A stretch of DNA of 64,000 nucleotides, taken from assembly GCA_963835925.1 (NCBI GenBank), contig CAWIHH010000004.1, forward strand, positions 14,452 through 78,451. Direction: 5' to 3'. The notes under the pieces were generated by a model that ran no database searches, had not been told where the DNA came from, and worked only from the letters and a program-made list of their open reading frames with translations. How positions within the stretch are numbered: position 1 is the first letter of the stretch; every line of letters begins with the position of its first letter. Of this stretch, positions 37,716 to 56,918 are shown one piece after another. This stretch comes from Candidatus Bathyarchaeota archaeon (GTDB taxonomy: Archaea > Thermoproteota > Bathyarchaeia > 40CM-2-53-6). The position numbers and the translations under genes are program-made.

Positions 37716-37802
37716 CATGTGTGTGCGGGATAGCTGGTGCGTGTCGTCGCCGTGGGTCGTGCTGCGCACACACAAATAGTTAGAACAAACGTTCAAATTA
37801 CA
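37716..37802 (+). repeat. intergenic repeat family copy (rearranged)
   Basis: tgtgtgtgcgggatagctggtgcg at 37718-37741, an inverted gcgcacacaca at approx. 37764-37774 and ttcaaatta at 37792-37800. Confidence 0.55.
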
Positions 37803-37945
37803 GCACAGGGAGACCGCACATCAGAGATAGTTAGAGCAGTAGGACATTGTTTGTCAACTCATCCCATATTGACGATTACTTGGTTAATGGTAACTATAGA
37901 TGAAGCATTCAAGGGCTAATTCTTGACAAGTACGGGGGAACTCGC

Positions 37946-38486
37946 ATGCGAATGAGAGATGCAATGTTTGCGATGACTTTGGGCGTGGTCGCAGGGGTCA
38001 TAGCCGCGTTTGCCGAAAGGGCCGACTCTGCCATTACGGGAGGAAATGCGACGCCCCTTGGATACATAAACACATACACATGGTTGCTAGTCTCCGCGAC
38101 CATATTCGGGCCTCTCGGAGCTATCATCACCACGGAGGTTCAAGCGTTTATCGGATTGATCACGTTCGCAAATCCGCTTTCGTGGCTATGGCCTTCCGTT
38201 AATTTAGTATTCGCGGTTGTCGTGGGTACTGTTTCCGTAGCCCTTTCCAAGCTCCATCCGAAGATGAAGCTTCATACAAGGCTCTTGCTTTTGAGTCTCA
38301 CTTGCGCCCTCGTAGACATCCCGATGACCTATGTGGTGATTGTAATGGCTCTCGGATTGCCTTTCAAGTTCTACCTAGTCGCAGTTGCCGATTTACATCA
38401 CGCTTCAATTGGTGCCGTCCACGTTGATTTCGTATACCGTTCTTCGAGGAATCTTTCGGGCTCACATTACCGGCGCAGTTCTTTGA
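37946..38486 (+). CDS. hypothetical membrane protein, probable frameshift near 38385
   Basis: 5-6 TM segments. A hydrophobic C-terminus (LPIYITLQLVPSTLISYTVLRGIF..) continues in the +1 frame to a TGA at 38484-38486. Confidence 0.4.
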
Positions 38487-38504
38487 GTCGGTTGAGGTTA
38501 AGCA

Positions 38505-39668
38505 ATGCAGAACTCTGTTGGAACACCCCCGGAACCGAACCTGAAGAATAGAATGCGAGAGGTCTTCGACAAGCTGTCAAGACGTGAAGACCTTAAGTCC
38601 GACGAGACGGAATTTGTCACAAAGACCATTCTGGACGGATTGACTGATCGATCATCCGACGTTGCTGATTTGTTGGTTGCGTTCTTCGGCGGGTTGACTA
38701 TCAAAGAACCGACCGTGGATGAACTTGCATCAATGGCTGCGGCCATGGAAGCGACAAAGAAGTTCAGGTTCAGGTTCAATGTGGACAAACCCTTAGTGAC
38801 AGCAGGTGGAACTGGCGGTGATACGGTGCCAACCATAAACGTGACAACTCCGGCGGTGATAGCTGCTGCTGCCGCTGGTTCGTACGCCCTCAAGAGTGGT
38901 GCAAGAGCTTTCTCGTCAAAGACTGGATCAACCGATTTAGCTGACTGCTTGGGCATAGACGTGAACGTGCCTCGTGATATTGTAGAGAGCTGTGTAGAGA
39001 AAATCAAAGTCGCAGTGTGGGCCTCTGAAGGCGTCTATCCATGGATGGGTCCACTCATAGAATTGGGGCGCAAAGAATCTGTATCCGCTGTGATGCCATT
39101 GCTATATTCGCTTAGGCTCATGATCGCGACTGCCCTTAATCCGTTTTCAATAAGACGCCAAGTCAGGGGCGTGAGCAAGCCCTTCACAGAGAAGGTAGCT
39201 ACAGTTCTACGGAATTGTGGTTACGAAAGAGCTTTGGTGGTCTTGGGACATGGAAGGACAGAGGGCGTAATGATAGATGAATTTTCAAACCTTGGCAATT
39301 CTGTTGTATCAGAATTGAAACTTGATGGTTCTATAAACACTTACACGATTCTTCCAGAAGATGTGGGCGTAAAGCGAGGGCGGATTGAAGATGTCCTTGC
39401 TCGTCTCAGTCACGTCGAGAATGCGGCAGTCACGGTCAGAGTACTATCTGGTTCAGACAGAAGCGCACGCAGAGACCTCATCCTATTGAATGCCGCCTCA
39501 ATAATCTACGCGGCCGATGACGTGAAGGATATAAGAGATGGGTTTGAACTGGCCTGTCAGACAGTTGACGAAGGAAAGGCATTAGAGGAATTACGCAAGT
39601 TGATTGCTCTAAGTGGCGGAAAAATGGAGAAGCTTGAGTCCATTTTAGGTTCGTTGAATATGCCGTAG
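38505..39668 (+). CDS. anthranilate phosphoribosyltransferase-like (glycosyl transferase family 3, TrpD paralog)
   Basis: AGGTGGDTVPTINVTTPAVIAAAAAG and SSKTGSTDLADCLG correspond to the GTGGD / SSKxGSAD motifs. Confidence 0.65.
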   Translation: MQNSVGTPPEPNLKNRMREVFDKLSRREDLKSDETEFVTKTILDGLTDRSSDVADLLVAFFGGLTIKEPTVDELASMAAAMEATKKFRFRFNVDKPLVTAGGTGGDTVPTINVTTPAVIAAAAAGSYALKSGARAFSSKTGSTDLADCLGIDVNVPRDIVESCVEKIKVAVWASEGVYPWMGPLIELGRKESVSAVMPLLYSLRLMIATALNPFSIRRQVRGVSKPFTEKVATVLRNCGYERALVVLGHGRTEGVMIDEFSNLGNSVVSELKLDGSINTYTILPEDVGVKRGRIEDVLARLSHVENAAVTVRVLSGSDRSARRDLILLNAASIIYAADDVKDIRDGFELACQTVDEGKALEELRKLIALSGGKMEKLESILGSLNMP

Positions 39669-39672
39669 GTGG

Positions 39673-39891
39673 ATGTGTTTGTCAAAGGTAACAGATGAAA
39701 CCGTAACTGTAATCTTCGAAACTGAAAGGCTCACCCAACTAAAAAAAGCCAGAGACCTATTTGCAAGTGATACAGACAATGATATTTCGATAAATGATTT
39801 CCTGGACATGCTCATCAAGACTTACGTCATGTATCGAGACAAGAGAGGCCCCACTGAAAGTTCGTTGCTCAAGAAAATGACTCAGACGTGA
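39673..39891 (+). CDS. small hypothetical protein
   Basis: 72-aa ORF with an ATG start directly after the TrpD-like gene. No recognisable family. Confidence 0.3.
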   Translation: MCLSKVTDETVTVIFETERLTQLKKARDLFASDTDNDISINDFLDMLIKTYVMYRDKRGPTESSLLKKMTQT

Positions 39892-40565
39892 TTACCCTCT
39901 ACATGAAACGATAGAATTAATGTCCTATCGACTACTTTGGTGCTCTTGAGTTTCAACGGTATTGCGTCCGCCTCTTGAAGGAAACCTTCACCATCGACAA
40001 GCGTTGGTGCATCTCTTCCTCCCCAGATGTAAGGTACGACCCAGACAAAGAGTTCGTCCACGAGTCCCTCCTTGAAAAAGCCCCAGCGGGCTTCTCCTCC
40101 ACCTTCAACTAGAACTGAATGTATACCGCGCTTCTTTAGCTCACCCAACAATTCCTTCAAGTCAACACGTTGGGATCCGCGCAATACGAGAACTTCCACC
40201 TTCCTTCGCAGAAGCTTGACCCTGCCTTCAGGGGCATGCTTCGTGACTGCGATTACGGTTGAGGCTTCCCTGCCAAGAATTTTTGATTCCAATGGCGTTC
40301 TCGCTTTACTGTCGAGCACAACTCTGAGAGGGTTTTTTCCTTTCACCTTCCTGACCGTCAGCGAAGGATTATCCGCTATGACAGTATCGACACCTACCAC
40401 GATCGCGTCCACCTTGGATCTGATAGTGTGTAACATCCTTTGATGTCGGGCCGTCATAAATCTTGAAAACTTCCTTCCAACTCGATCAGCGGGCGCTATC
40501 TTACCATCTACGCTCATGAGTCCGCCGACCGTAACCCTAACGTTATCCATTGTGACCAACCTCAC
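39882..40565 (-). CDS. diaminohydroxyphosphoribosylaminopyrimidine reductase (archaeal RibD C-terminal-type)
   Basis: Motifs MSVDGKIA, VDAIVVGVDTVIADNPSLTVR, NPLRVVLDS and VLVEGGG. Confidence 0.75.
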   Translation of the reverse strand: MRLVTMDNVRVTVGGLMSVDGKIAPADRVGRKFSRFMTARHQRMLHTIRSKVDAIVVGVDTVIADNPSLTVRKVKGKNPLRVVLDSKARTPLESKILGREASTVIAVTKHAPEGRVKLLRRKVEVLVLRGSQRVDLKELLGELKKRGIHSVLVEGGGEARWGFFKEGLVDELFVWVVPYIWGGRDAPTLVDGEGFLQEADAIPLKLKSTKVVDRTLILSFHVEGNHV

Positions 40566-40608
40566 CTAACCACACCCATACGAGAAGAGCTTGTTTTAGG
40601 CGTGGAAT

Positions 40609-40860
40609 TTGAACATCGTCGTTAACATGATTTTCTGTATGTGTGGTATTAATGGTGCGCGCATGCTGGAGCCGCATATCCGCAACCCAAACGAAAGTGT
40701 GAAACTGAGAATCTTGGAGCTTGCGCATCAGGGTAGATCTAATGAAGACATTTGCAAGATATTGGACAAGACCTATGACCCCTATCGTCCTTTCGTCTCA
40801 AGAGTCATAGCGGAATATCGAGGAAGAGGGGTACTGACTGCAAAGATCGACACGGAATGA
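40609..40860 (+). CDS. small HTH-like protein
   Basis: VKLRILELAHQGRSNEDICKILDKT is an HTH-like segment. The likely ATG at 40664 lies immediately after a repeat copy. Confidence 0.35.
   Translation: MNIVVNMIFCMCGINGARMLEPHIRNPNESVKLRILELAHQGRSNEDICKILDKTYDPYRPFVSRVIAEYRGRGVLTAKIDTE
40637..40664 (+). repeat. intergenic repeat family copy (short form)
   Basis: tgtatgtgtggtattaatggtgcgcgca. Confidence 0.5.
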
Positions 40861-40962
40861 GTTTTGTAACAACACTTACCCCACCCGGTTGGGCGGATTT
40901 CTTCAACTTAACAACAACTGCATCTTCGAGTATGGCGGTTCGAACGGTCAGAGGTCGATGAC

Positions 40963-41841
40963 TCAGACTTCTGAAGCTTCAAGTGCAACAGTCCGCATTG
41001 TTACGAATTCTGCGCAAGACTTCTTCAGCCTTCGAATTAGGCGGAGAACCTGATCGACTGACCTTTTGCCGCAGTTGTGACTCACGTGAAACGGGACCCG
41101 ATACCCGTCTGGAACGTCGGCTAGTTCCCAAGAGTGCAATTCTATGATGAACGGTTGACCCAGTTTGAATAGCAGGTTTCCTGTCAAGCAGGGAAGTAGC
41201 TCCCCATAATTCTTGCGAAACCACCACCAGCCAACTGGAATTCTGAGAATCGGAAACATTGAAATCGGTAATTCAACTAGCCTCGCATTGGTCTGCTCAA
41301 TGCCCGAGTCCCACATGAAGGGACTCGAAAGTGAAAATATCGGCGAGTACCTGGTCCTAAACCAAGTATCCAACAGCGAACTATCATAGAGATAGCGTGC
41401 TTGCAATAGAGCAGTTATCATGTTCTTTGTGATCGCGAAATACGGTTCCCTGTACCCCTGAGGCGTCACACCTAATGAGTTCTCAAGCGTGCGTGTACTT
41501 CCCAAGATTTTTCTAAGCCATTCATCGCGAGTGCGTTCAGGCGTTCGGCAATGTTCCGTCCCATGGTTCCCAATCTCATGCCCGGCTTTGAGCATCTCAT
41601 GAAGCAGTGGGATGTTGCGTTGAGCAAAATATGTGGTCACGAAGAAAGTGGCATTCACATGCTCTAGATCAAGTAGCTCTAACAACGTTTGCAGGCCTTT
41701 GCGGGCCACTTCGAGCTTGATGGCTTCGGGCAAGGCCGTCACCCGGCTGCGACCAATGTCTTGGGGGATCGTCCATTCCTCCAAGTCGACGGTTATCGCT
41801 ACTTTTCTTGAGAGAACCATAAAATCGCCATCGTGGCGCAA
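40963..41841 (-). CDS. polysaccharide deacetylase (CE4)
   Basis: Motifs ITVDLEEW, ATFFV and GHEIGNHGTEH. Confidence 0.7.
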   Translation of the reverse strand: MRHDGDFMVLSRKVAITVDLEEWTIPQDIGRSRVTALPEAIKLEVARKGLQTLLELLDLEHVNATFFVTTYFAQRNIPLLHEMLKAGHEIGNHGTEHCRTPERTRDEWLRKILGSTRTLENSLGVTPQGYREPYFAITKNMITALLQARYLYDSSLLDTWFRTRYSPIFSLSSPFMWDSGIEQTNARLVELPISMFPILRIPVGWWWFRKNYGELLPCLTGNLLFKLGQPFIIELHSWELADVPDGYRVPFHVSHNCGKRSVDQVLRLIRRLKKSCAEFVTMRTVALEASEV

Positions 41842-42536
41842 AAACGAATGGCAGTAGGAATCACGTGGACTTTCGATCGATCAGTGTGCCGTTCGTGTCG
41901 CTCGACTGGAACTTGCACTATTCTAAGATTGTTTTTTTTAGCTTTTACGAGGAGTTCGATATCGAAGTCGAAACCGTTCGCGGTCAATCCCAGCTCATCA
42001 CAGCTTGTCTTTATGACTGCTTTGAGGCCCTCGTTTGGGTTTGAGATGGGTATCTTGAAAATTCGGGTGAAAAGAGCCTGATACACCGATGAAAATACTT
42101 GTCGGATGGTTGAAGTATGAATGTTCTTTCCCTGGCCGACTACGAGATCTGCAGAACCCGAAAGGATTGGTTCCAGCAATCCTGGTATCTCGAATGGTGA
42201 GTACTGTTGATCCCCATCCATTATTACGAGTATTTCACCGGCTGCGCTTCGGAATCCAGTCCTTATGGCCGCTCCCTTACCCATATGTTTCTCTAGTGCG
42301 GCATACTTGACTGACGAAGAGCGTATTGAATAGTCTTTGATTTGATCTAGTGTTCTGTCGCGGCTTCCGTCGTCAATGAAGATTAGTTCTCGAATGGATT
42401 GGTTTGTGCGCACTAGTCTTTCGAAGGCTTCACAGATTGGTCCTATGCTGCTCTGTTCATCCCTCACAGGAACTATGATTGATGCTTCAAGGCTCAATAT
42501 CGGAATTCCACTCGAACAGTTTTCCTTGACATACAT
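41799..42536 (-). CDS. GT2-family glycosyltransferase (dolichyl-phosphate sugar synthase-like)
   Basis: Motifs SIIVPVRDE, FIDDGSRDRT, GKGAAIRTG and VIMDGDQQY (DxD). Confidence 0.8.
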   Translation of the reverse strand: MYVKENCSSGIPILSLEASIIVPVRDEQSSIGPICEAFERLVRTNQSIRELIFIDDGSRDRTLDQIKDYSIRSSSVKYAALEKHMGKGAAIRTGFRSAAGEILVIMDGDQQYSPFEIPGLLEPILSGSADLVVGQGKNIHTSTIRQVFSSVYQALFTRIFKIPISNPNEGLKAVIKTSCDELGLTANGFDFDIELLVKAKKNNLRIVQVPVERHERHTDRSKVHVIPTAIRFCATMAILWFSQEK

Positions 42537-42552
42537 GCCTCGAAGGACTCCA

Positions 42553-43341: not shown

Positions 43342-43425
43342 ACAAACTCCCTGACCTGAATCTCATCCAAAAGAGCTATGTTCGGACTGGGGGATCCCTG
43401 ATCTGCGTAGAACGCAGATTGAGGC

Positions 43426-47022: not shown

Positions 47023-47039
47023 CGACATATCGAATCTGT

Positions 47040-47399
47040 TTAGATGATTGAGTTGGATGGATTAATACCTAACCCAGCATTCACCCCTTGACCTATCTCT
47101 AATCTACGCCTCTTATAGAAGTCAACTACCGCTTCATTGATGAATGTACTAAGATCACTATCATACCCACGCTTCCTAGCATAGTCATACAGCAATAACG
47201 GTACTGGATCGATCTTCGCGCTCTTAGTGATAGGTGTTAACTCTAGTTCAACTGATCTACCTAATGGTTGACTAGATAGGATAGTAGATGACAACGATGG
47301 TGCATCTGATGGTTGAGTAGGTATAGTAGATGACAACGATGGTGCATCTGATGGTTGAGTAGGTATAGGGGATGGTATACCTGATGGTTGAGTAGGCAC
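47040..47399 (-). CDS. repeat-containing protein with RHH-like C-terminal domain
   Basis: The N-terminus has Pro/Ser/Thr-rich 14-aa tandem repeats (IPTQPSDAPSLSST). The C-terminus is IDPVPLLLYDYARKRGYDSDLSTFINEAVVDFYKRR. The frame stays open upstream to 47513 without an ATG. Confidence 0.4.
   Translation of the reverse strand: MPTQPSGIPSPIPTQPSDAPSLSSTIPTQPSDAPSLSSTILSSQPLGRSVELELTPITKSAKIDPVPLLLYDYARKRGYDSDLSTFINEAVVDFYKRRRLEIGQGVNAGLGINPSNSII
47261..47397. repeat. tandem repeat, approx. 42-bp unit, 3-4 copies
   Basis: The core ctgatggttgagtagg recurs at 47306, 47348 and 47381, with a variant at 47261. Units 47264-47305 and 47306-47347 are near-identical. Confidence 0.85.
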
Positions 47400-47454: not shown

Positions 47455-47485
47455 GATAGGATAGTAGGATAGTAGGATAGTAGGT
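47455..47485. repeat. 8-bp microsatellite (GATAGTAG)n, approx. 3.5 units
   Basis: ataggatagtaggatagtaggatagtagg, read directly. Confidence 0.85.
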
Positions 47486-47488
47486 TGG

Positions 47489-48197
47489 ATGATGGAGTGG
47501 TATTGGGATGCTTTCAGGAATGTTCTGCCTGAATGGTTGGACTTCCAAGGTCGAATGACTTTGAGCTCACCAGAACAATGCGTCTGACCCGTTCAATGCT
47601 GCGTTGAATTATGGGTACGGCTTTCTTGAAGGCGAATGCAGAATGGCGATTAACTGCTGTTGGCTTGGAACCATGCGGTCGGATTTCTGCATGACTTTAG
47701 TGATTACCAGACGAAGCAATCCTTAGCCTATGATCTTGCAGGAACCGTTCAGGTGGATAGTTGACCTATCGGTGATTCAAGCTTTCGAGTCGAAGGTCTT
47801 AGGCTTGCATGATTTCTATTTCACTGGTGATGATTACCGTTACCGGTTCGAGACTGAAGCGAAGCAGCGTTTTATTGATTTGATTCGTGAACGATTCAAC
47901 GCTGGAGTAGGTACAAAGGGTCGAGTTCTGAAATGGGATACGGTGATCGAACAGAAAACTGAAGAGCTAGGCAGATATTTGACAGGAAAATCATCCACGC
48001 TTGACTTCGTCGAACCTGCACCAAGCCTGGAAAGGCAGGATAGCCGAGAGTTGCGATCTAAGATTCTTGCGCTAACTCAATCTCAAGCTAGACAGCTCGG
48101 AATTGGGAAGAGCACGCTCTACTACTTGCGAAGAAATGCAAGAATGCGCCGACCCATCGTGGTCTATAGCAAGCTTCTTGAGAAGTTGGTTCAGTGA
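47489..48197 (+). pseudogene. cas1: Cas1/casposase-like gene remnant with C-terminal HTH; N-terminal domain missing, at least 3 frameshifts or stops
   Basis: YWDAFRNVLPEWLDFQGR, DPFNAALNYGYGFLE, VGFLHDFSDYQTKQSLAYDL and QEPFRWIVD (Cas1 core motifs) lie in three frames. The intact tail 47730-48197 ends with the HTH SQARQLGIGKSTLYYLRRNA. Confidence 0.65.
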
Positions 48198-49941
48198 GTT
48201 GTTTGGCAAGACAATCGGGCGGTATCTCGGCGTTCTAAGCTTTGCAACAGTAGCACTCATACTAAGCCCAAGATATCTCTCTGCTGACTTCAACGCCGCC
48301 ATGGCTAACGATCCGCAGAAATTCATAGAACTCATTGTTGTTTACTACGGATTGCTCTCTATTCCAGTAGCTTGGTCAATATTCCCATCGCTACTGAGGG
48401 TCCCCAAGGCTAGAGGTTACATAGCTACCGCAATATTCTCGGTATTTCTAGTGTCATCCAGAGTTGTCACATATTTTGGACTTGGCAACCCTGAACGCCT
48501 CCTCGACATCCTCGTCGGTGCAATCATACTGTATGTCCTGAGGGAAGTAGTGAGCACTAAGGAAAAAGCACCACTAGGGTCCCCCACACCGGCATTCTTG
48601 GATTTTGGCCAACAATTCGCTTCAGGGTTGGTCTATTTCGGCACAGTGACAGCTGCAGAAGTGATAATCTTATGGTCGACACGGGGAATGCTACCGTATC
48701 CGTATCTAACAGCTGGCATCTGGGCGTCATTGGCGCTGATTTTTGGGTTGCCCATTTTGCGTGTCTATGCTCGTGGTTTTGCTGAGGAGGGGATATCCAT
48801 TCGAAGCTTCTTCGCCTCCATGAAGTCAGCGAAGGAAATGGAAAGATTGGCCGTCATTTCTAATCTGTCAGTGATTGGTGTTCTACTCGCTCACGTCACT
48901 TACGCTTCAAGTGTAGAATTGCATTCAATAATCTACGCTATCGTACTCCTGGGCTTGCCCAGTACCTCATCTCTTCCTACGCTACTGGTGGTGGCTCTCT
49001 ACGCATTGGTATTCGCCTTGCTCATAGCCATGGCAATCACTCCGTTATGGGTTAATTATAGATCTCTTGGGATGAGCGAAGACGATATTCGAAGAATAAT
49101 GGAGAGCAAGACCATCTGGCGGACACCGCTTATTATCCAAGACTTGCTTACGGCTTTGACGTTTGGATTGATCAAGACGGACTTGTTCTTGGTAATCCCC
49201 TTAACGCTCTTTGGAGTCACACCAAACAGATTGCTCTCATTCCCGAATGAAGCCTACATCCTTCTTGTAACCATAATACTGCTGTTCTTCGGTCGCATCT
49301 TGACTACTCTTGCAGGGAGAAGCTTCCCCCTCTACGCCCTAGGCATCGTCATGGCACCTATCAGCATAGTGTTTTCGACTTCTCTCGACTTCTTTCATAC
49401 GGACATCAAAAGACGGCTCCTTCGTCACTACGCTAGACTCCAAGAGCAATTGCCGCTTATCATTGAGCGACTAGAGAAAGCCGCAACAAATGAATACGAT
49501 CTACTCTTGTTGCGACTGATTTCACGGTACGGGCTCTTGGACCAAGAAATCATTGGTGGAAAACACGGGCTTCCTGGGATTAGACCGGTTGACATAGATC
49601 CAGTTGCACGTGTTTTGAATTTGAGCATCAGAGATAGGAAATCCAAGAAATTGGCGCAGATATCCATACCACTTGACGTAGAGACTGCGCACCTTCTAGA
49701 AAGTTGCCTCTCCGGCGTCACTCCAACAAATCGTATTTTCCAAATCTCAAGAATGCAGTTGTGGGCAAGAATCATCCACCTTGCCAAGCGTGCTGCAGAG
49801 AATCCACTTCAGATTACGACGTTTCGATTAAGAGCCCACTTTGTGACATACTGTTCAAAGAATCTACCATCCGATGTAGCAGAGCAGCTGAGGACACGAA
49901 GTGTTACGAATCCGTCTAGCCCTGACACCCATATCCGGTAG
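48103..49941 (+). CDS. polytopic membrane protein with C-terminal degenerate tyrosine-recombinase-like domain
   Basis: About 10-12 TM segments fill the first approx. 440 aa. The last approx. 170 aa resemble an integrase catalytic domain (..IPLDVETAHLLESCL..RIFQISRMQLWARIIHLAKRA..ITTFRLRAHFVTY..) but with substituted catalytic positions. The true start is probably downstream of 48197. Confidence 0.5.
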   Translation: MGRARSTTCEEMQECADPSWSIASFLRSWFSELFGKTIGRYLGVLSFATVALILSPRYLSADFNAAMANDPQKFIELIVVYYGLLSIPVAWSIFPSLLRVPKARGYIATAIFSVFLVSSRVVTYFGLGNPERLLDILVGAIILYVLREVVSTKEKAPLGSPTPAFLDFGQQFASGLVYFGTVTAAEVIILWSTRGMLPYPYLTAGIWASLALIFGLPILRVYARGFAEEGISIRSFFASMKSAKEMERLAVISNLSVIGVLLAHVTYASSVELHSIIYAIVLLGLPSTSSLPTLLVVALYALVFALLIAMAITPLWVNYRSLGMSEDDIRRIMESKTIWRTPLIIQDLLTALTFGLIKTDLFLVIPLTLFGVTPNRLLSFPNEAYILLVTIILLFFGRILTTLAGRSFPLYALGIVMAPISIVFSTSLDFFHTDIKRRLLRHYARLQEQLPLIIERLEKAATNEYDLLLLRLISRYGLLDQEIIGGKHGLPGIRPVDIDPVARVLNLSIRDRKSKKLAQISIPLDVETAHLLESCLSGVTPTNRIFQISRMQLWARIIHLAKRAAENPLQITTFRLRAHFVTYCSKNLPSDVAEQLRTRSVTNPSSPDTHIR

Positions 49942-49990
49942 AGGCTATGCTATTTCCAATACCAATTGCGGTAGTGCTTTCAGGTTTTTT

Positions 49991-50030
49991 GTGTGTGTGG
50001 TATCAGTGGTGCGGGCAACGTAATTTGAAC
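49991..50030 (+). repeat. intergenic repeat family copy (short form)
   Basis: gtgtgtgtggtatcagtggtgcgggcaacgtaatttgaac matches 36 of 40 positions of the copy at 56854-56893. Confidence 0.75.
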
Positions 50031-50294
50031 CCTGGTCCGTGGTCAGAAAATGGTGAATGCGCGCCAGTAAATCACACTTTGAAACTGCCTGCAACACACA
50101 AGGGCAGGTCACAATAGGAACATTACCGAGTGCTGAAATTGATGAACATTGGCAAAAGAAGTCAATTGCGCCCCTCCATGTAGCTTCAGAGTCAGAAGCG
50201 AAAAGGAAGATGAGGTCGTAACGATGGTGCAGCAGCATGCAAAGAACTCGCATCAGAAAGACGTGTCAAGAAGCGACGTTCTCGGCATGATGAA

Positions 50295-50344
50295 GACAGT
50301 TTAGAATTATTCCAAGCTTTCTAAACTGTCAAATCCCTATTTTT
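50295..50344 (+). terminator. 12-bp perfect inverted repeat followed by a T5 run
   Basis: gacagtttagaa (50295-50306) pairs with ttctaaactgtc (50319-50330) across a 12-nt loop. TTTTT lies at 50340-50344. Confidence 0.3.
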
Positions 50345-50468
50345 CAACTCCGATTGGCTTCGAAAAGCTTCGAACGTTTTCAGTAATGTATCGTGTGTTC
50401 AGCATAGTCGGGTGCGCACATACGAACAGTGAATGCATCAACTTCCTAATTGAGGAAGCGCCTGACTT

Positions 50469-50570
50469 GCTGCGAGCTAAGCGAGCAGTTAGAATGTGTG
50501 TGTGAGGCATAGCTGGTGCGAGCACCAGAATTTGAATCGTCGTCGTTCGGTCATTTAGTGTGTGTGCACC
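50469..50570 (+). repeat. intergenic repeat family copy (full form)
   Basis: gctgcgagctaagcgagca ..gtgtgtgtgaggcatagctggtgcgagcaccagaatttgaat, plus a second gtgtgtgtgcacc at 50558-50570. Confidence 0.75.
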
Positions 50571-50623
50571 ATTGATACGGGGATATAGGTAAGATTAGAT
50601 TTTAGACAGGTCACTGTCTTATT

Positions 50624-51385
50624 GTGGTGTTTTACTTGTCATCAACTTGCCCGTCCTGCGGCCAGCCTTTGGCGACGAACGCAAACTTCTGCGCCTCATG
50701 TGGAGTTAGACTAGCTGCTCCGAGTTCAGCGGGTTCATCTGCTTCTATTGCGAATCAATCTTTACGCTCCATTTTCTCGCAATCCGAATATGTAGTCGAA
50801 AAGAATCTGCTCACCAGCGGGGTCGGGCTAGGAAGTATCCGTTCAACTGAGGATACCTTCGAAATCAAAGACAAGAGTGGAAGTCTTCTTGCCAGCGTAA
50901 AGCGTAAGGGATTCGACACAGGAGACGGGTTGCGGGTTTTCATTGTGGAAACTCCAAGCGGCGAACAAGTTGCGGAATTACGCAAAAACGTATTCCAACT
51001 CGGCGACCTAATGAACATGGACGCCTTAAAGGACAAGCCTTCGTATGAAGCGTTTGACTCAACGGGACGATTATTCGCATCAATAAAACATAAACCCTCA
51101 AAACCCGGCGCGAGGTTTTCAGCCGACGTACCCTGCATCATTGATAACAACGGCCAAGAGATTGCGAGATTAGACTACGGTGGCATCATCCTATCAAAGC
51201 AGTGGACACTCAAATCCTCGGACAGCTTAACAATCGCAACCATACGCGCTCAAACAGTGCCGCGAGAAACTTATACTGTGGAAATCGTGAACTTCGCCAC
51301 AGAACCGTACGTTATCCTGCTAACCCTATTCGGAATGATACCAGAATCCACCAATATGCCTCATCATCCTCACATTCACCATTGA
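50624..51385 (+). CDS. zinc-ribbon protein with beta-rich C-terminal domain (possibly LURP-one/scramblase-like)
   Basis: N-terminal CPSCGQPLATNANFCASCG. The remainder has alternating beta-strand-like repeats (FEIKDKSGSLLASVKRK.., FIVETPSGEQVAELRK..). The family call is tentative. Confidence 0.4.
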   Translation: MVFYLSSTCPSCGQPLATNANFCASCGVRLAAPSSAGSSASIANQSLRSIFSQSEYVVEKNLLTSGVGLGSIRSTEDTFEIKDKSGSLLASVKRKGFDTGDGLRVFIVETPSGEQVAELRKNVFQLGDLMNMDALKDKPSYEAFDSTGRLFASIKHKPSKPGARFSADVPCIIDNNGQEIARLDYGGIILSKQWTLKSSDSLTIATIRAQTVPRETYTVEIVNFATEPYVILLTLFGMIPESTNMPHHPHIHH

Positions 51386-51495
51386 CAAGCATTCAATTCA
51401 TTCGTTCGTTTCTTGACGGAGTACGCATCACCACACTCACCATATGACAACGCAGCGAAAACAGCATTCAACCTCACACGTAATGACAAAACCGT

Positions 51496-51570
51496 TTTGC
51501 GAGCGAAGCGAGCACGTCCGTCGGTCGAAAAGTGTGTGTGGGTCTAGTGGTGCCAGCACCTGAATTTGCG
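51496..51570 (+). repeat. intergenic repeat family copy (full form)
   Basis: tttgcgagcgaagcgagca ..gtgtgtgtgggtctagtggtgccagcacctgaatttgcg. Confidence 0.75.
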
Positions 51571-51599
51571 TCGTCTGATCTTGACTCAATGTCTATGCA

Positions 51600-52004
51600 T
51601 TAATGTCTGGATGGTGCGGCCGCCGAGAACCACCATTCAAACGTGGTTCCCACGACTCGGCCTAGGTCACAAACCTCAAGACGTGTGGTCATTTTGGCCC
51701 AAACAACACCGGCGCCATTGAGTGGAACATTAGGAGACGTGAAGATGATTCCTGACAAGGAGAGAGGTGAGAGCTCCCCTTTGACAAGTAGGGGTTCAAA
51801 CTCGAATGGAGATGCTAGTTGCGGCTGAACAAGGCCGCTCCGCGAGATGCGACCTCCTGAGGAACAGTTTTCATCTCTCCGTACCACCAAACCCGAGACA
51901 TCATAACCAAACGCCAAGAAAGCTAGCCCAACACGGCCATGAAAGAGCTTGACGACTTGACCTAGCTTTTGCGTTCTGGAAACTGATCCTTCGTTCATCG
52001 ACAA
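51600..52004 (-). CDS. hypothetical protein
   Basis: 134-aa ORF. A repeat copy lies immediately upstream of its start. No recognisable family. Confidence 0.3.
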   Translation of the reverse strand: MSMNEGSVSRTQKLGQVVKLFHGRVGLAFLAFGYDVSGLVVRRDENCSSGGRISRSGLVQPQLASPFEFEPLLVKGELSPLSLSGIIFTSPNVPLNGAGVVWAKMTTRLEVCDLGRVVGTTFEWWFSAAAPSRH

Positions 52005-52008
52005 GAAA

Positions 52009-52062
52009 GCGTGCGTGCGGTATCAATGGTGCGCGCGCGCACACAATGACGGTGTAAATTCT
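52009..52062 (+). repeat. intergenic repeat family copy (short form, GC-alternating)
   Basis: gcgtgcgtgcggtatcaatggtgcgcgcgcgcacacaatgacggtgtaaattc. Confidence 0.55.
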
Positions 52063-52166
52063 GATGTGCGCACGATGCAATGCACTCACGTTTATTGCGG
52101 GTGTTGCTACGCTAGGGATTCGAGTCTTTTGAAAGCCATAAGCGTGTACAAGAAGGATTAGTGTTT

Positions 52167-53783
52167 TCACAGTTTTGTGCCGCAGTGTGCGCAGAATTCG
52201 TTGCCCGCGGGGTTCTGGGTTCCACAACTTCGACAGTGGACTCCCCCACCTCTTGCACCTTGAGCCGCTTGTGCTGGCCCGGCTGTTCTTCTGCGCCTCG
52301 ACGCGACGAGAGCCGCACCGACTATTAGGATGATGACAGCGAGTATCAGCAAGCTGTTTTGCTGAAGCATACTCATCAGATCACTCACGCCTGACGCGGT
52401 GGAGGTCTGAGTGCTTGAGGATGAGCTCTGCGTCTGTGTCGCCTGGTTGATGATCAAAACCGCGTTGGCCAGGCGGCTTACTCCTCCACCACTGCCAGTA
52501 ATTGCCAATGTGAACGATCCTGTGGGTGCGCTTGCTAGAAGCGTAACGGTAAGTGTTGAAACAAAGTTCGGAGTCGCTGAGGGAACACTGAAGACAATGT
52601 TGACACCGGAAGGTGCCCCCGTCACTGTTAACGAAACCTGCGAGTTGAAACCCTTCAAACCAACAACATTAACCGTGTACGAAACTGTCTGCCCTTGAAG
52701 CACACTCTGGGACGCTGGACTCACATTGATCTGGAAGTCAGGTGCCTGAGTCACAATCAGGGTGACTGGGGCAGAGTGCGATACACCACCTCCAACCCCA
52801 GAAACTGTCAGTGTGAATGTTCCAGGTGATGCTGAAGCAGTTGTGGTGACGCTTAGAGTGGAACTGAAGGGTGGAGTCCCCGACGAGGGAGTGAGGGAGA
52901 CGGACACCCCTGCAGGTGGTGGTGTGGATAAGCTCAAGGCAACGCTCTGTGCCGTGCCCGACACCAAGTTCACCGTCACCCCATAAGTTGCACCGCTACT
53001 CGGAACAACGCTCTGCTGCGGTGGTGAGGCGGATATTGAGAAATCAAACTGTGCCTGCGGCGCAACCGTGAAGCTCTTACTCATTGCATTGTTACTCGTA
53101 TTCGGGTCAAGCCCCACTGGGATCGTCCCGACTCCCCAAGTCAAAGTATGCGTACCAGGTGTTGCAATCCAAGGCGTTTGCGTGCTTACGGTGAAAGGAG
53201 TACCCGTTGGTCCAGGGTAGGTGAGTGACCCACCGCCGCAAGATGCTCCATCGAGCTCGCAAACTGCAGAGAAGCTCTGCGGAAAAGATCCCGGGGAAGT
53301 AAGCGCGGTCATCGCCATACTGAATGTGACCGGGTCACCAACCTTCGGAGCAGAAGGGCTTAGCGAGACAGAAAGAACTGCCCAATCTGTAGCTGGTGTG
53401 GTGCTCCCAACGACCTGAAAGGTTGCCACATTCCCCACCATCTGATGGAAGGTGATCGCCACAAGGGCTTCATATGTTCCAGGGGTGCTTATGCCGGGAG
53501 GGTATACTTCGTAGTCCAATCCGGGTCCTACTTTCATCGGGCTGCTCTGCCAAATGTCCGAAGAAGTGCCAGAGGGGCGAATATGCACCGTGGCAGTTTC
53601 TTGACCGTTCCACTGCTGACTGCCAGTCGCTTCGACCCAGAAAGTAACCATGAACGATTTGCCTACGGGCACAGATGTTGGACTAACAGATACGTGAAGT
53701 TCATCCGCATTTACGGTTCTCGGAACACTGCCCACCGACACGAGCAAAAGGAGCAAAATCACTAGACCGGATCTAGCTCGCAA
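52167..53783 (-). CDS. large surface protein: signal peptide, tandem Ig-like domains, TM anchor, cytoplasmic zinc ribbon
   Basis: The N-terminus is LVILLLLLVSVGSVPRTVNA. Two approx. 100-aa internal repeats begin FDFSISASPPQQS.. and DFQINVSPASQS.. The C-terminal TM is followed by CRSCGTQNPAGNEFCAHCG. Confidence 0.6.
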   Translation of the reverse strand: MRARSGLVILLLLLVSVGSVPRTVNADELHVSVSPTSVPVGKSFMVTFWVEATGSQQWNGQETATVHIRPSGTSSDIWQSSPMKVGPGLDYEVYPPGISTPGTYEALVAITFHQMVGNVATFQVVGSTTPATDWAVLSVSLSPSAPKVGDPVTFSMAMTALTSPGSFPQSFSAVCELDGASCGGGSLTYPGPTGTPFTVSTQTPWIATPGTHTLTWGVGTIPVGLDPNTSNNAMSKSFTVAPQAQFDFSISASPPQQSVVPSSGATYGVTVNLVSGTAQSVALSLSTPPPAGVSVSLTPSSGTPPFSSTLSVTTTASASPGTFTLTVSGVGGGVSHSAPVTLIVTQAPDFQINVSPASQSVLQGQTVSYTVNVVGLKGFNSQVSLTVTGAPSGVNIVFSVPSATPNFVSTLTVTLLASAPTGSFTLAITGSGGGVSRLANAVLIINQATQTQSSSSSTQTSTASGVSDLMSMLQQNSLLILAVIILIVGAALVASRRRRTAGPAQAAQGARGGGVHCRSCGTQNPAGNEFCAHCGTKL

Positions 53784-54021
53784 AATTCCTTTCCCAATTC
53801 TTATTCTCGTGAGTGAGAATTACTGGGTTGCGAAGGCTATTTGACGCTTTGGATGAACGTTCGAGAAATTGAGGCAACTGAAAATCGACACGGGAGAAAT
53901 AAGGCGCTGTTCATTGAAACGCCGACAGACCCATACTCCGAGGTGGTGATGTGCACCAGTTACGCCGCACACACATTTTTGACGAACGACGACTATGAAG
54001 TAAGTCAAGACTGGGAGTCAC

Positions 54022-54150
54022 ATGGCTGAGAAAGTTGCACGCTATCTTCGGATGCCGCGTCCGCCGATCATGAAGTGTTCAAGCTGTGGTAATGACAATA
54101 ATCTCGGAAGCACTAACTGCAGCAAATGTGGCAAACCACTCCAGTACTGA
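54022..54150 (+). CDS. small zinc-ribbon protein (42 aa, below the ORF-track cutoff)
   Basis: Manual translation gives MAEKVARYLRMPRPPIMKCSSCGNDNNLGSTNCSKCGKPLQY*. Confidence 0.4.
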   Translation: MAEKVARYLRMPRPPIMKCSSCGNDNNLGSTNCSKCGKPLQY

Positions 54151-54301
54151 GCCTAACAGTTCAAATCCTACTGCCCGAACAAATTCAAGAGACTAAAATG
54201 ACGCCGAGTGCAGCGGAAAGCTGAGTTTCAGATGTTTTGCAGATTAGGAGTTCTTCCTCTGATTAGGCGTCACCCTGTTCGATTTATCAATTCTTCTTTG
54301 T

Positions 54302-54484
54302 TTACCACGTCTTCTCAACGCGAGATGGACACTTACTTGGGTCACTTGTTCTTGCATCTCTGCATTCCGAGCTTCCAGCGGCGCAGTTTTCTCCAGCGCC
54401 CTCGTCACAAGGGTAATCCTCTAACAGACAATAGTACTTCTTAATCGCATTAACCGTACGAACCGTTTTGCTCATTTCTATCAA
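54302..54484 (-). CDS. small Cys-containing hypothetical protein
   Basis: 60-aa ORF. Weak support only. Confidence 0.2.
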   Translation of the reverse strand: MIEMSKTVRTVNAIKKYYCLLEDYPCDEGAGENCAAGSSECRDARTSDPSKCPSRVEKTW

Positions 54485-54514
54485 CGAAATCTATTGTGTA
54501 CAGTAGTTAAGAAT

Positions 54515-54547
54515 CTGTGTATGGCTGGTGCGCGCACAATAATCTAA
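54515..54547 (+). repeat. intergenic repeat family copy (short form)
   Basis: ctgtgtatggctggtgcgcgcacaataatctaa. Confidence 0.5.
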
Positions 54548-54605
54548 CACACTAATCCCAGACAAACAGGACAACACTAACACGCCACGCGACAAGAAAA
54601 GTCCG

Positions 54606-54672
54606 TTCTGCGAGCGCAGCGAGCACACGCATTTTTGTGTGTGGTATTCATGTTGCGCGCACGCACACTAAA
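54606..54672 (+). repeat. intergenic repeat family copy (full form)
   Basis: ttctgcgagcgcagcgagca ..tttgtgtgtggtattcatgttgcgcgcacgcacactaaac. Confidence 0.75.
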
Positions 54673-54687
54673 CTGGCAGTTCAACTT

Positions 54688-54717
54688 CTGGCGCTTGCGC
54701 CAGTGGTACGTTTTTTT
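54688..54717 (+). terminator. hairpin plus T7 run
   Basis: ctggcgc-tt-gcgccag (54688-54703) is followed by TTTTTTT at 54711-54717, directly downstream of repeat copy 54606-54672. Confidence 0.3.
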
Positions 54718-54828
54718 GTAATGCGATGAGAAAGGGGTAAGATGGCGGGCGAGCTCAAAGCTCCCAAAAACACCCCACTCCTCGTGGGGTATTCTGTAAC
54801 CGAAATACACCCCCCTCCGTGATGGTGG

Positions 54829-54904
54829 TTCTGCGAGCGAAGCGAGCAGCGGTAGAAAGTGTGTGTGCGCACCACCAGACCCACCACCACCAGAAAGTTT
54901 AAAC
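54829..54904 (+). repeat. intergenic repeat family copy (full form, variant 3' half)
   Basis: ttctgcgagcgaagcgagca ..gtgtgtgtgcgcaccaccag..cagaaagtttaaac. Confidence 0.7.
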
Positions 54905-54962
54905 CGCGACTGACGACGATTCAAACCTCGGCTGCAAAAAAAGGGGTCTCATACCTAGCTAA

Positions 54963-55955
54963 ATGGCCGTACGTGCCATTTCGGAAGATGGTCAAGCCTT
55001 GAGTGCAAATCAGCGCTCCCGTAATCTTTCCCGTCGAATCTTTCTCAGTTTAGTTGCCGCTGGCGGAGCATATGTTGTTGCTGATGCGATCCTCAAGGGT
55101 CCGCTCAGCACCTTGTCAACAGGCAAATTCACTGTAAAGCAAGTTACCACCGCTTCGACGGCATCGCTAACAAGCAGTACCAGCACAATCATATCCAAGA
55201 GTACAACGTTGTCCGCTACGTCGCCATCAGAACCCGTAAACATGCTAGTCTTGTACAAGTCAGACTTTGAAACCGGGAGTTTTCAACCTGAAGTGTTCCT
55301 CAATCAAGATCGTATAAACGGAGCAACATGTGACATAGTTACTGACATTGTCAGAGAGAGAAGATATGCTTGCAAATGTACCGTAACAAATCCAACACCA
55401 ATTGTTCCAACAGGTCTGCAATCAAACAAGGCAATGATTAACTTCCTTAATCTGCGGTCGCCGAATCATGCTCCAATCCGCGAAGCGTACTACGCATTCA
55501 GTGTCTATCTTCCATCTACACTGAATGGGCCGTACTGGATTATGCCTTTCCAGATTATGCAGAAAGATTCCTCCACTAGTGACACCGCTGTTTTGGTTGC
55601 TCTCAAGGCACGCAATTTCCCTCAGACGCCCGACGGAGTGCTGAAACTGTATCTTGCATACGACGGTGCCAATTTTCCAGACCAGATAGAACCTTGGCAT
55701 GATTCTGCTCCCTTGGAACTTGGCCGTTGGCATGACTTCATAATGTATTTCCTATGTGACCAGAATGGGCGAGTGATACTCTGGCAAAATGGTGTTTTGA
55801 AGTGTGATGTTTCCTACAATACTACATATTTGAACAACGCTCCGAATCCGTATCCTCTGGCTGGAATGTATCAAGATGAAAGAAATCCTGCGAACTGGTG
55901 TGTTATTGATCGAATAGTAGTAGCTTCGACTCTTGATGCGGCAACAACTTCCTAA
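54963..55955 (+). CDS. Tat-exported concanavalin-like protein (polysaccharide-lyase-like)
   Basis: The twin-arginine signal is SRRIFLSLVAAGGAYVVA. The C-terminal pattern GRWHDFIMYF..GRVILWQNGV is typical of lectin/lyase beta-jelly-rolls. The family call is tentative. Confidence 0.45.
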   Translation: MAVRAISEDGQALSANQRSRNLSRRIFLSLVAAGGAYVVADAILKGPLSTLSTGKFTVKQVTTASTASLTSSTSTIISKSTTLSATSPSEPVNMLVLYKSDFETGSFQPEVFLNQDRINGATCDIVTDIVRERRYACKCTVTNPTPIVPTGLQSNKAMINFLNLRSPNHAPIREAYYAFSVYLPSTLNGPYWIMPFQIMQKDSSTSDTAVLVALKARNFPQTPDGVLKLYLAYDGANFPDQIEPWHDSAPLELGRWHDFIMYFLCDQNGRVILWQNGVLKCDVSYNTTYLNNAPNPYPLAGMYQDERNPANWCVIDRIVVASTLDAATTS

Positions 55956-55997
55956 ATGAACTGGTTCGTTTCAAGGTGGTGATACTGCTGGTGGTGC

Positions 55998-56036
55998 TTC
56001 AAATTGACGGTTCAAATTGCGATGCTCGCACCAGTA
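55998..56036 (-). repeat. intergenic repeat family copy, inverted orientation, partial
   Basis: ttcaaattgcgatgctcgcaccagta is the reverse complement of tactggtgcgagcatcgcaatttgaa. An extra ttcaaattg lies just upstream. Confidence 0.6.
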
Positions 56037-56113
56037 CCTTGTTTTGGAGACCGCTTCCTCTGTGGGTTTGGTGATCTCCAAACAAGCTGACTCTGCTTTT
56101 GTCTCGTCTCCTT

Positions 56114-56710
56114 CTAACTCGACTTTGCGACGCATGTGAGGCTTGTTACATACTTGACCATTGGATGGCCCTTCACCGTAGGTTGCACGACTCTCGCTGG
56201 ATATCCGTGTGGAATGGTTAATGGGGCATCCTCTGCCTTCAGAGCAATCATTGTTTGCGGATTAGTGATAGCAGCCGTCTGGATTTGTGACTTGTAGCCT
56301 GTGACGCTTTCAACTACGATATGGTCTATTGTCTCGGGTGGTGTTTGCGCTAGCGTGAGAAGATCCGTTAATGGTATGCCTTCCCAAGGAACGTCTTTCA
56401 CCCAGACCACTTTGTGCATTTCACATGAGATTGGTATAGTCATCTTCACAGTCGGCATAGCGTATAGGTCATCGATTGTGAGGTGCAAGGGGTTTGTTAC
56501 GTCTCCTACTATGTGTAATCGATAGGACTTCAAGTCTACCGTAGTTGGCATGTCGGTGTTCCATTCGACTGGGAAATCCGTAGGCTGAAATCCTCTTTCG
56601 AGTCCTCGGACAGTCTTTTCAAAAAGCCACGATATGCCTAGAAAACCGCTAGCCACTACGGCGGAGGTTACGGAAATTAACTTAATGAACGACCTTCTAT
56701 CCAATTTCAC
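56114..56710 (-). CDS. Tat-exported molybdopterin-binding oxidoreductase-like domain protein (SUOX/YedY fold)
   Basis: The Tat signal is DRRSFIKLISVTSAVVASG. YRLHIVGDVTNPLHLTIDDL..IPHGYPARVV resembles the Oxidored_molyb domain. Confidence 0.55.
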   Translation of the reverse strand: MKLDRRSFIKLISVTSAVVASGFLGISWLFEKTVRGLERGFQPTDFPVEWNTDMPTTVDLKSYRLHIVGDVTNPLHLTIDDLYAMPTVKMTIPISCEMHKVVWVKDVPWEGIPLTDLLTLAQTPPETIDHIVVESVTGYKSQIQTAAITNPQTMIALKAEDAPLTIPHGYPARVVQPTVKGHPMVKYVTSLTCVAKSS

Positions 56711-56815
56711 GAGCTTAGCCTCGGCTATGCTACATCAATTCCTATGTAGCCTACTTATCAAGTGCTCGTTGCACATTATCTGGGCCTTGTGCTCTATGCC
56801 ATATTTACTCGTCCG

Positions 56816-56918
56816 GCGATGAGAAAGGAGTTTCTGCGAGCGTAGCGAGCATTCGTGTGTGTGGTACTACTGGTGCGAGCAACGTAATTTGAACTGATGT
56901 TCTTTGTGTGTGGTGCTC
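56816..56918 (+). repeat. intergenic repeat family copy (full form)
   Basis: gcgatgagaaaggag-tttctgcgagcgtagcgagca-ttc-gtgtgtgtggtactactggtgcgagcaacgtaatttgaac, plus a second tgtgtgtggtgctcg at 56904-56918. Confidence 0.8.

Follow-up and report, generated by a model that had tools for sequence, protein, structure and literature searches.

Casposons are thought to be ancestral to the adaptation machinery of CRISPR (short palindromic repeats that are clustered and regularly interspaced), and up to now they have been known as rare elements, with few copies per genome and with targets that occur once, for example a single tRNA gene or EF-2. The present work concerns a family of unannotated intergenic repeats between positions 37,716 and 56,918 of a 64,000-nucleotide stretch (the window) from a Candidatus Bathyarchaeota archaeon (assembly GCA_963835925.1, contig CAWIHH010000004.1, positions 14,452 to 78,451), for which an initial annotation had offered three candidate roles: an element resembling MITEs (miniature transposable elements with inverted repeats) or repetitive extragenic palindromes (REPs), iteron-like binding sites, or a family of small RNAs. 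In Aciduliprofundum boonei, the minimal target of the casposase consists of the 15-bp segment that becomes the target-site duplication (TSD) and the adjacent 18 bp encoding the TΨC loop of tRNA-Pro. No sequence downstream of the duplicated segment is needed, an arrangement compared by the authors to the leader-repeat junction of CRISPR (PMC5137440). At the 3' ends of this element the last five nucleotides alone matter (PMC6614799). Family-2 casposons reside at tRNA 3' ends or intergenic sites with a 14-bp TSD, form tandem insertions sharing the TSD, and carry genes for a helix-turn-helix (HTH)-HEAT protein and a TPR protein of ~827 aa (PMC4779613).

From sequence comparison of the window with related loci, the repeat is probably, with a probability of about 0.65, the integration module, in this Bathyarchaeon, of elements mobilized by a casposase (Cas1-type transposase), together with the scars of their insertion. 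The repeat-bearing stretch of the window is most likely a scarred insertion hot-spot next to a decayed casposase gene and not a set of RNA genes or promoters.

Putative target module and insertion junctions

In the + orientation of the window, the module is composed of an optional A box (TTCTGCGAGCGWAGCGAGCAG), a short A/T-rich stretch, a (GT)n tract designated g, a 15-mer X and a segment d, often followed by a CGTCGTCGT spacer. X has the form GG-N6-TGGTG[C/A]G, that is, the TGGTGCG of the initial annotation plus 8 nt, and d, of the form [A/G]GC[A/G]-N4-AATTTGAAC, always abuts X exactly. The core comprises TGGTGCGAGCA, then 4 nt, then AATTTGAAC, and this 4-nt spacing is rigid across copies. 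Read on the minus strand, with a slash marking the junction, the core becomes GTTCAAATT-N4-TGCT/CGCACCA-N8 (also written ...CGCACCA-N6-CC), whose first 17 nt, T-loop-like and equivalent to the previously noted AATTTGAA box plus AGCA, constitute the leader. In variant copies d is replaced by (CA)n, C-runs, (ACC)n or CGACGACG, which are inverses of the sequence left of X.

In related loci (L numbers below), casposase elements are inserted at the junction between TGGTGCG and AGCA and the 15-mer is duplicated, most clearly in L038, L139, L142, L146 and L148. The L038 element, 5,599 bp long with a Cas1 gene and 99-bp terminal inverted repeats (TIRs; 89% identity), is flanked by GGTTCTCTTGGTGCG on both sides; (GT)n precedes the left copy and the right copy continues into AGCACTGGAAATTGAAC, with the duplication matching at 15/15 positions (or 14, because of an ambiguous G). 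Since its ends abut X copies and d is present on the right only, this element was inserted exactly at the X-d junction, with duplication of X. Other Cas1-encoding elements have TSDs identical at 14/15 positions, namely L139 (6.4 kb, with an 825-aa TPR protein and a 13-bp TIR, CACCCCCCCAGAA), L120 (9.3 kb, no evident TIR), L142 (8.4 kb, TIR of ~25 bp) and L146 (19 kb, TIR of ~34 bp with the target inside), or at 15/15 positions, namely L148 (12.8 kb, TIR of 18 bp) and L143. The non-coding element of L123 (599 bp, TSD 14/15, TIR 34 bp) and the 1,080-bp element of L114 fit the definition of a MITE as a short non-coding multi-copy unit with TIR and TSD, and further small or non-coding elements with 15/15 duplications were found in L047, L125, L138 and L126. 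A comparison with empty sites gave no clean example, as the right flank of L139 is orthologous to L012/L096 and its left flank is not.

An independent test was provided by eight contigs picked by the Cas1 protein alone, L142, L143, L146 and L148 among them. The module is present in all eight (24 copies in 155 kb), and in these four named loci Cas1 has an X-(CA)n on one side and a matching X-d on the other, the two 15-mers being identical at 14-15 of 15 positions and the inverted ends spanning 18 to ~34 bp. Against a permutation null, in which the variable 8 nt are drawn randomly from all credible copies, matched pairs surround Cas1 in 4/8 Cas1-selected loci, where the null has a mean of 1.17 (P~0.01); the figure is 3/4 for repeat-selected loci with a full-length Cas1 (P 4e-4).

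The target is also found within the inserted DNA. Among left junctions of the form g-X/C..., 84/121 open with (CA)n and 43/121 carry an inverted target 17-42 nt inside, a frequency of ~1% being expected by chance. The elements of L146 and L114 have at both ends repeats of the form (CA)n-A-run-GACGACG-GTTCAAATT...CACCA. A second direct copy occurs within 100 nt upstream of 43/248 targets, and a G/T-rich run lies directly upstream of 198/248. A degenerate target copy (TGGTGGAGAAGTGGAAATTG versus TGGTGCGAGCACTGGAAATTG) is likewise seen inside the L038 terminal repeats (about 6480-6572 and 974-1070). As a separate observation, a conserved hairpin module (TTAGGGGAGGAATCCCCTAA-like) lies just inside the (CA)n ends of some inserts (L123, L016:1780-2020, L022, L024 and L101).

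The likeness of the core to a tRNA end was missing from the initial annotation, as was the casposase pseudogene 1.8 kb upstream. The reverse complement of X plus d has exactly the spacing of a T-loop (7), T-stem (5), acceptor (7), discriminator and CCA, and on its sequence the core is a pseudo tRNA 3' end. By direct reading, the would-be T-stem is not complementary and cannot pair, hence the module is not a copy of a working tRNA. Likewise, a real or split tRNA gene was rejected, with no tRNA reported by ARAGORN and no Rfam match at the gathering threshold or, in 49.5-57.5 kb, at E (expectation value) <=1. Genuine tRNA genes have the module 19-39 nt downstream in the same orientation in L035, L080 and L118, and in L134 a spacer of 9 nt separates a genuine tRNA end from a downstream CACACAC. 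The window itself holds the 3' end of a tRNA-Ala gene (51611-51627, minus strand), homologous to the intact intron-containing tRNA-Ala(CGC) of L035:519-653 and without any 5' part in the window, whose trailer (TCYAGAC) resembles the commonest N6 of X; the target module may derive from a tRNA-Ala 3' end. A 7-bp stem, GAACCAC/GTGGTTC, occupies the T-arm place of this remnant. It is conceivable that the repeats are attachment-site remnants, i.e. partial tRNA 3' ends left by tyrosine-recombinase elements, as the core resembles such an end and the tRNA-Ala piece lacking its 5' half could itself be one. This explanation is nevertheless highly unlikely: the duplicated segment measures just 14-15 bp and is directly bordered by TIRs, the T-stem is unpaired, and the elements encode Cas1 with no integrase in the Pfam tables examined, integrases not having been searched systematically.

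Casposase genes of the window and related loci

The window pseudogene lacks the N-terminal ~190 aa and is frameshifted, with its C-terminal HTH part intact as the open reading frame (ORF) 47730-48197. It matches residues 262-411 of the Methanosarcina mazei casposase (6opm_A, E 1.1e-25) and, in two frames by tblastn, is 57% identical to the Cas1 of L141. Next to it comes an ORF for a multi-pass membrane protein of 612 aa (48103-49941), a gene order that recurs in L107, with a complete target module (U) 45-49 nt beyond this ORF. Just upstream of the casposase remnant, a 42-bp unit is present in ~2.8 tandem copies, two of them identical (47281-47397), inside the minus-strand ORF 47040-47399, which has PTQPSDAPSLSSTI-type repeats. 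For a full-length relative, the Cas1 of L038, the best PDB match is again 6opm (1.4e-68, versus 1.6e-26 for the best CRISPR Cas1), and scores against Pfam Cas_Cas1 are 5.5e-50 and, for L038, 2.3e-53. A homologue search returned at least 851 Cas1 clusters at 90% identity with E<=1e-30.

When loci were chosen by the repeat pattern alone, tblastn revealed Cas1, whole or as a fragment, in 13 of ~136, in addition to the window. Clustering of 873 ORFs from repeat-selected loci gave Cas1 as the lone recombinase-like family among the 25 largest clusters, most ORFs being without domain screening. No other cas gene family appears in the gene tables of the eight Cas1-selected loci. In the L038 element, a D5_N/DUF5906 (D5-like) primase-helicase stands beside Cas1, and elements of L017 and L139 contain the HTH-HEAT and ~825-aa TPR genes. 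Genes around the casposase in L146, L147, L148, L149, L145, L139 and L142 are largely of defence type and include DarT with Macro, HEPN_AbiV, an N6_N4 methylase with an NgoMIV-like nuclease, dCMP/MafB19 deaminases, an Mrr_cat Zn-ribbon nuclease, Fic, SLFN_AlbA_2, TIR_2 and HsdM.

Copies in the window and their wider distribution

The presence of a dispersed repeat family in the window, far above chance, was confirmed by pattern counts, by a repeat search and by a profile built from 229 copies of other organisms only, hence independent of the window. TGCGAGC-NN-AGCGAGCA occurs five times exactly, all on the + strand (50471, 51498, 54609, 54832 and 56835), with 0.32 expected by chance, and GTGTGTGTG six times, also all on the + strand, with 0.44 expected. 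The repeat search recovered three sub-families at the positions that the initial annotation had given, and the near-match described there between the copies at 49991 and 56854 amounts to 88% identity over 43 nt (49988-50030 versus 56852-56894). The single inverted partial copy reported at 55998-56036 was recovered at 56010-56036 by the same search and at 56035-56001 by the profile, and a further inverted partial copy, absent from the earlier list, was revealed on the minus strand at 53952. The 13-mer gcgatgagaaagg was found at both reported places. The features are collected in Table 1.

Table 1. Target modules, related boxes and neighbouring casposase and tRNA remnants in the window (window coordinates; U, complete target module; E, expectation value of the profile match)
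Feature	Position	Strand	Composition	Basis
Partial copy	37716..37773	+	(GT)n, X 37727-37741 (GGGATAGCTGGTGCG), TGTCGTCGCC in place of leader, CGCACACAC at close	E 0.15
Partial copy	40604..40664	+	AATTTGAAC + CATCGTCGTT spacer + T-run + (GT)-like tract + X 40645-40659, no leader after X	40632-40664, E 0.0045
Casposase (Cas1-family) pseudogene	47477..48197	+		PDB 6opm_A match; tblastn in two frames
Complete U	49986..50037	+	T-run, (GT)4, X 49999-50013 (GGTATCAGTGGTGCG), leader 50014-50030 (GGCAACGTAATTTGAAC)	49986-50037, E 1.5e-12
A box	50469..50488	+	TGCTGCGAGCTAAGCGAGCAG	Pattern match
Complete U	50494..50545	+	(GT)n, X 50506-50520, leader 50521-50537, CGTCGTCGTT spacer	50494-50545, E 3e-11
Second (GT)n + inverted X-like arm	50558..50581	+	Arm CACCATTGATACC; then promoter-like box GGGGATATAGG of gene 50624	
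A box	51496..51515	+		Pattern match
Degenerate U	51531..51571	+	X 51540-51554 (GGGTCTAGTGGTGCC), leader AGCACCTGAATTTGCG	51531-51568, E 3.8e-6 (rounded, 4e-6)
tRNA-Ala gene 3' end + trailer	51611..51667	-	3' end of ~17 nt (CTCGGCGGCCGCACCA at 51611-51627), ~40-nt trailer	Homology to L035 tRNA-Ala(CGC)
Left-junction type copy	52010..52046	+	GCGTGCGTGC + X 52019-52033 (GGTATCAATGGTGCG) + CGCGCGCACACA; C-rich run after X, no leader	E 0.2
Inverted partial copy	53952..53996	-	GTCGTCGTTCGTC + A-run + (GT)n + X-like (GGCGTAACTGGTGCA)	Repeat search
X-like 15-mer	54515..54547	+	X-like 54518-54532, then CGCACA	E 1.4
A box + X-like, no leader	54606..54672	+	A box 54606-54626, T-run, (GT)n, X-like 54643-54657 (GGTATTCATGTTGCG), CGCACGCACAC	E 0.19
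K box (the recurring 13-mer)	54723..54735	+	GCGATGAGAAAGG; second copy 56816..56828 (+); also upstream of A in L002, L102	
A box + inverted X	54829..54893	+	A box 54829-54849, (GT)n, inverted X 54868-54882 (CGCACCACCAGACCC), (ACC)n	Pattern match, sequence reading
Complete U without (GT)n; candidate unoccupied target	56001..56041	-	X 56027-56041, leader 56010-56026	56035-56001, E 1.7e-10
A box + complete U + second (GT)n	56831..56920	+	A box 56831-56852, X 56863-56877, leader 56878-56894; second (GT)n with GTGCTCG	56852-56901, E 8e-13

Not all copies first listed stood as described. Among the five supposed full copies, those at 54606 and 54829 lack the TGGTGCGAGCA plus AATTTGAA part; the former has TGTTGCG after (GT)n, followed by CGCACGCACAC, and the latter has the inverted form CGCACCA... 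after (GT)n. Of the short forms, that at 49991 is in fact complete, that at 40637 is a partial copy, and those at 37718, 52010 and 54515 consist of (GT)n plus the 15-mer only, with E of 0.15-1.4. Partial profile matches in this same range of E lie at 37716, 52010, 54522 and 54632 and, on the minus strand, at 53953 and 54868. The weaker relatives proposed at 28845, 32344 and 35216 were not credibly detected by the profile, for which the sole score is 35215-35238 with E = 8.

The GCGAGC direct repeats, first taken as defining, turned out to be an optional module found upstream of just 18/276 core copies. This A box, GCGAGC-N3-GCGAGC with a 9-bp period, always lies 3-17 nt outside (GT)n, has a sharp left edge with unique sequence beyond, is conserved in species differing in X, and bears no relation to gene orientation or distance. 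The ~75-nt full form of the window, which combines A box and core, has neither inverted ends nor a flanking duplication of its own.

Beyond the window, further copies were revealed in many Bathyarchaeia genomes and metagenome contigs. In a scan of one genome per species, the pattern TGCGAGCNNAGCGAGCA-N3-25-GTGTGTG gave 20 stretches, 16 of them from metagenome-assembled genomes of Bathyarchaeia (~nine species) and four from bacteria, consistent with chance; the core TGGTGMGAGCA-N4-AATTTGAAC was present in at least 120 metagenome contigs. A viral origin was discarded, because the core is absent from 2.9 million viral contigs and the lone A-pattern match, in a giant-virus bin, is compatible with chance. 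In the sampled loci targets occur at a density of ~1 per 5-6 kb. Over ~865 kb of repeat-bearing loci, 247/265 distinct core copies (93%) do not overlap ORFs of >=110 aa, and the intergenic regions that they occupy may be convergent, divergent or tandem. Copies are also present near housekeeping genes such as those for TBP and eIF-1A. With respect to the gene on either side, core copies are oriented without bias (104:102 for the upstream and 84:97 for the downstream gene), and neighbouring copies are mostly co-oriented (57:27 if >200 bp apart, 54:5 if closer). No description of such a Bathyarchaeia repeat was found in the literature searched. An identical 1,965-bp contig covering window positions 54732-56696 is present in an unrelated sequencing run (Logan ERR10755942).

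These data bear on the three roles offered at the outset, of which the tie to mobile DNA and the look of enzyme recognition sites were each partly upheld and the small-RNA proposal was not. The lack of an orientation bias relative to flanking genes and the location of 93% of copies outside long ORFs agree with the earlier remark that the family is not simply a promoter. Iteron- or operator-like binding sites of a host or element DNA-binding protein, serving gene regulation or chromosome structure, would suit a 24-nt block conserved across many species at fixed spacing, the 9-bp period of the A box, and the fact that some copies abut GGGGATATAG promoter-like boxes. However, neither core nor A box has any orientation or distance bias with respect to gene starts or ends, copies occupy every type of intergenic region, and such binding sites, which seem quite unlikely, would leave the exact junctions and duplications unexplained. 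That the repeats might be small structured RNA genes or RNA processing signals (tRNA-like t-elements) is scarcely credible: the T-loop-like sequence and ACCA of the core and the long hairpins into which some copies can fold speak for it, but apart from the negative Rfam result, the fold z-scores of the two strands fall between -1.96 and +2.18 and copies have no fold in common, the variable arms lack compensatory pairing, and copies are oriented without regard to genes.

An independent MITE/REP-like repeat, moved by another transposase of the REP-associated tyrosine transposase (RAYT) or IS200/IS605 type and merely serving casposons as a landing place, is an improbable account, though it would explain the modular mosaic of direct and inverted units, reminiscent of bacterial interspersed mosaic elements (BIMEs), the 93% intergenic location, the 57:27 co-orientation of neighbours, the many copies remote from any casposase and the sharp left edge of the A box. 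It is opposed by the finding that the module and the casposon duplication share their boundaries at single-base precision, and by the ORF clusters, in whose 25 largest no RAYT-like family accompanies Cas1, not all ORFs having been scanned against Pfam. Furthermore, in opposed arms the variable 8 nt have a mean complementarity of 3.4/8 (random pairs, 3.2), all pairs staying below 7/8; the composites are thus not maintained hairpins, unlike REPs. The apparent covariation between species of TGGTGAG/CTCACCA with TGGTGCG/CGCACCA, considered as a sign of a hairpin RNA or cruciform, is one motif in two orientations, and the variable 8 nt remain unpaired.

Several other candidates were tried and rejected. 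GATGAGA/CTGA-like boxes near some copies are inconsistent and wrongly spaced for C/D-box small RNAs. An archaeal promoter, with AATTTGAA or TGATAGAAT as TATA box, or a terminator, with the T-runs before (GT)n, is not in keeping with the lack of relation to gene orientation and distance. Integron attC-like sites, considered for the co-oriented cassette-like spacing, lack R''/R' GTTRRRY cores and have intervening genes on both strands. There is no resemblance to origin recognition boxes of replication origins, and copies are spread over 19 kb. A CRISPR array was dismissed, as the longest chains hold 3-4 units with differing 15-mers and conserved "spacers", and a search for proto-CRISPR arrays, in which short unique inserts would separate identical 15-mers, gave one candidate (L047 6799/6853, insert of 39 bp), with no chain reaching three.

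Among other features of the window, a zinc-ribbon occurs in three neighbouring hot-spot genes, namely a 42-aa ORF (54024-54152), the N-terminus of a 253-aa protein (50624-51385) and the C-terminus of a secreted protein of 538 aa with repeats (52167-53783). On the minus strand at 56923-58184, a DUF1501 gene, probably a frameshift or pseudogene, is split into ORFs 56923-57627 and 57645-58184 and adjoins a DUF1800 gene (58197-59612). A 46-nt direct repeat, 83% identical (GAAAGTCGTCTCCGTTCAGAGACC...), at 26756-26801 and 32940-32985 is unrelated to the family studied here.

Proposed integration mechanism and relation to known systems

In the mechanism envisaged here, the casposase would recognize the T-loop-like 17-nt leader, and the adjoining 15 nt would be cut at both ends and duplicated upon insertion of DNA, after which the sole remaining target would be the X copy beside the leader. 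With just this leader-side copy staying a target, new insertions would accumulate on the same side and generate hot-spots such as that at 49.9-57 kb. The (GT)n and inverse (CA)n tracts would be the usual termini of inserted DNA, with G-runs, (GGT)n and CGTCGTC as rarer ones. A common class of inserts would carry a target copy inside each ~60-bp TIR, and such internal targets would account for tandem copies, for inverted (hairpin-like) composites and for the high copy number. Junctions, duplications, inverted repeats and casposase genes were observed in the sequences, and recognition of the leader, the order of events and the tRNA-Ala origin of the module are what we infer.

A number of observations weigh against the casposase reading. 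The similarity of 15-mers within a locus is raised for wrong-order pairs as well (13.6% vs 17.9%), so the duplication statistics carry little weight by themselves, and it is the individually clear elements that mainly support the case. The (GT)n of L038 adjoined the target before that insertion and must therefore either belong to the target or have terminated an earlier insert. A casposase is lacking near most copies, and that of the window is a pseudogene; inside the window, no complete element with matching duplication could be delimited, and a search for the left inverted repeat or left end of its decayed element found none. The A box, never present in inverted pairs and always co-oriented within a locus, is not accounted for. 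Finally, no Pfam family of family B polymerase (PolB) lies within 10 kb of Cas1 in any of the eight Cas1-selected loci, nor was one seen in the L038 element, hence the elements are not casposons in the strict self-synthesizing sense, though casposon-like in behaviour.

A broader and decidedly tentative picture, built on these sequence features, is that Bathyarchaeia may host a very large PolB-less casposase family with defence-type cargo, whose commonest members would hold the target in both terminal repeats, so that each insertion would make two new landing pads. Self-propagating, nested, leader-anchored arrays with 15-bp duplications would result, possibly a still-living link from the insertion site of a casposon to the leader-repeat array of CRISPR. 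To the extent of the literature searched, three things are new, the casposon kind itself being known: the dispersed high-copy target mimicking a tRNA end, the location of the target inside element ends, and how large the casposase family without PolB is. If the casposase reading is true, one archaeal class holds hundreds of target copies per genome with an abundant casposase family, non-autonomous derivatives and hot-spots, which would provide many natural target variants for working out casposase recognition as well as a natural case of leader-directed polar build-up of inserted DNA. It would also explain puzzling unannotated intergenic repeats of Bathyarchaeia assemblies, which could then serve as markers of mobile, often defence-related gene islands.

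Set beside bacterial REP/BIME mosaics and MITEs, the family shares short, intergenic, high-copy modules and a mosaic of direct and inverted units, and some non-coding derivatives have TIR and TSD (L123); in contrast, no hairpin is kept by compensatory change, no RAYT-type gene was noticed, and the associated enzyme is a casposase. The resemblance to the family-2 casposon target of A. boonei lies in the bipartite organization, with a 15-bp duplicated segment and a TΨC-loop part of ~18 bp, in the overlap of the duplicated segment with the tRNA 3' end by a few bases, and in inserts that have TIRs and a Cas1-family casposase. Here, however, the target is a dispersed pseudo-tRNA end with an unpaired T-stem in place of one tRNA gene, it often lies inside the ends of the inserted DNA, and no family B polymerase was seen. 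Methanosarcina family-2 casposons provide the closest solved relative of these Cas1 proteins, 6opm (PMC6977970), and share with the present elements the 14-bp TSD, tRNA 3'-end or intergenic sites, tandems with a shared TSD, and the HTH-HEAT and ~825-aa TPR genes (PMC4779613), but they are present in few copies per genome at one to three loci, as compared to at least 851 Cas1 clusters and many targets here, where the cargo is dominated by defence-type genes. With respect to the CRISPR leader-repeat junction used by Cas1-Cas2, the repeats here are non-identical, the inserts, tens of bp to 19 kb in length, are conserved at their ends, arrays reach at most 3-4 units, each with its own leader, and neither cas2 nor CRISPR RNA features were seen; what the two systems have in common is a leader beside a unit that is duplicated with each integration, polar insertion and a homologous enzyme.

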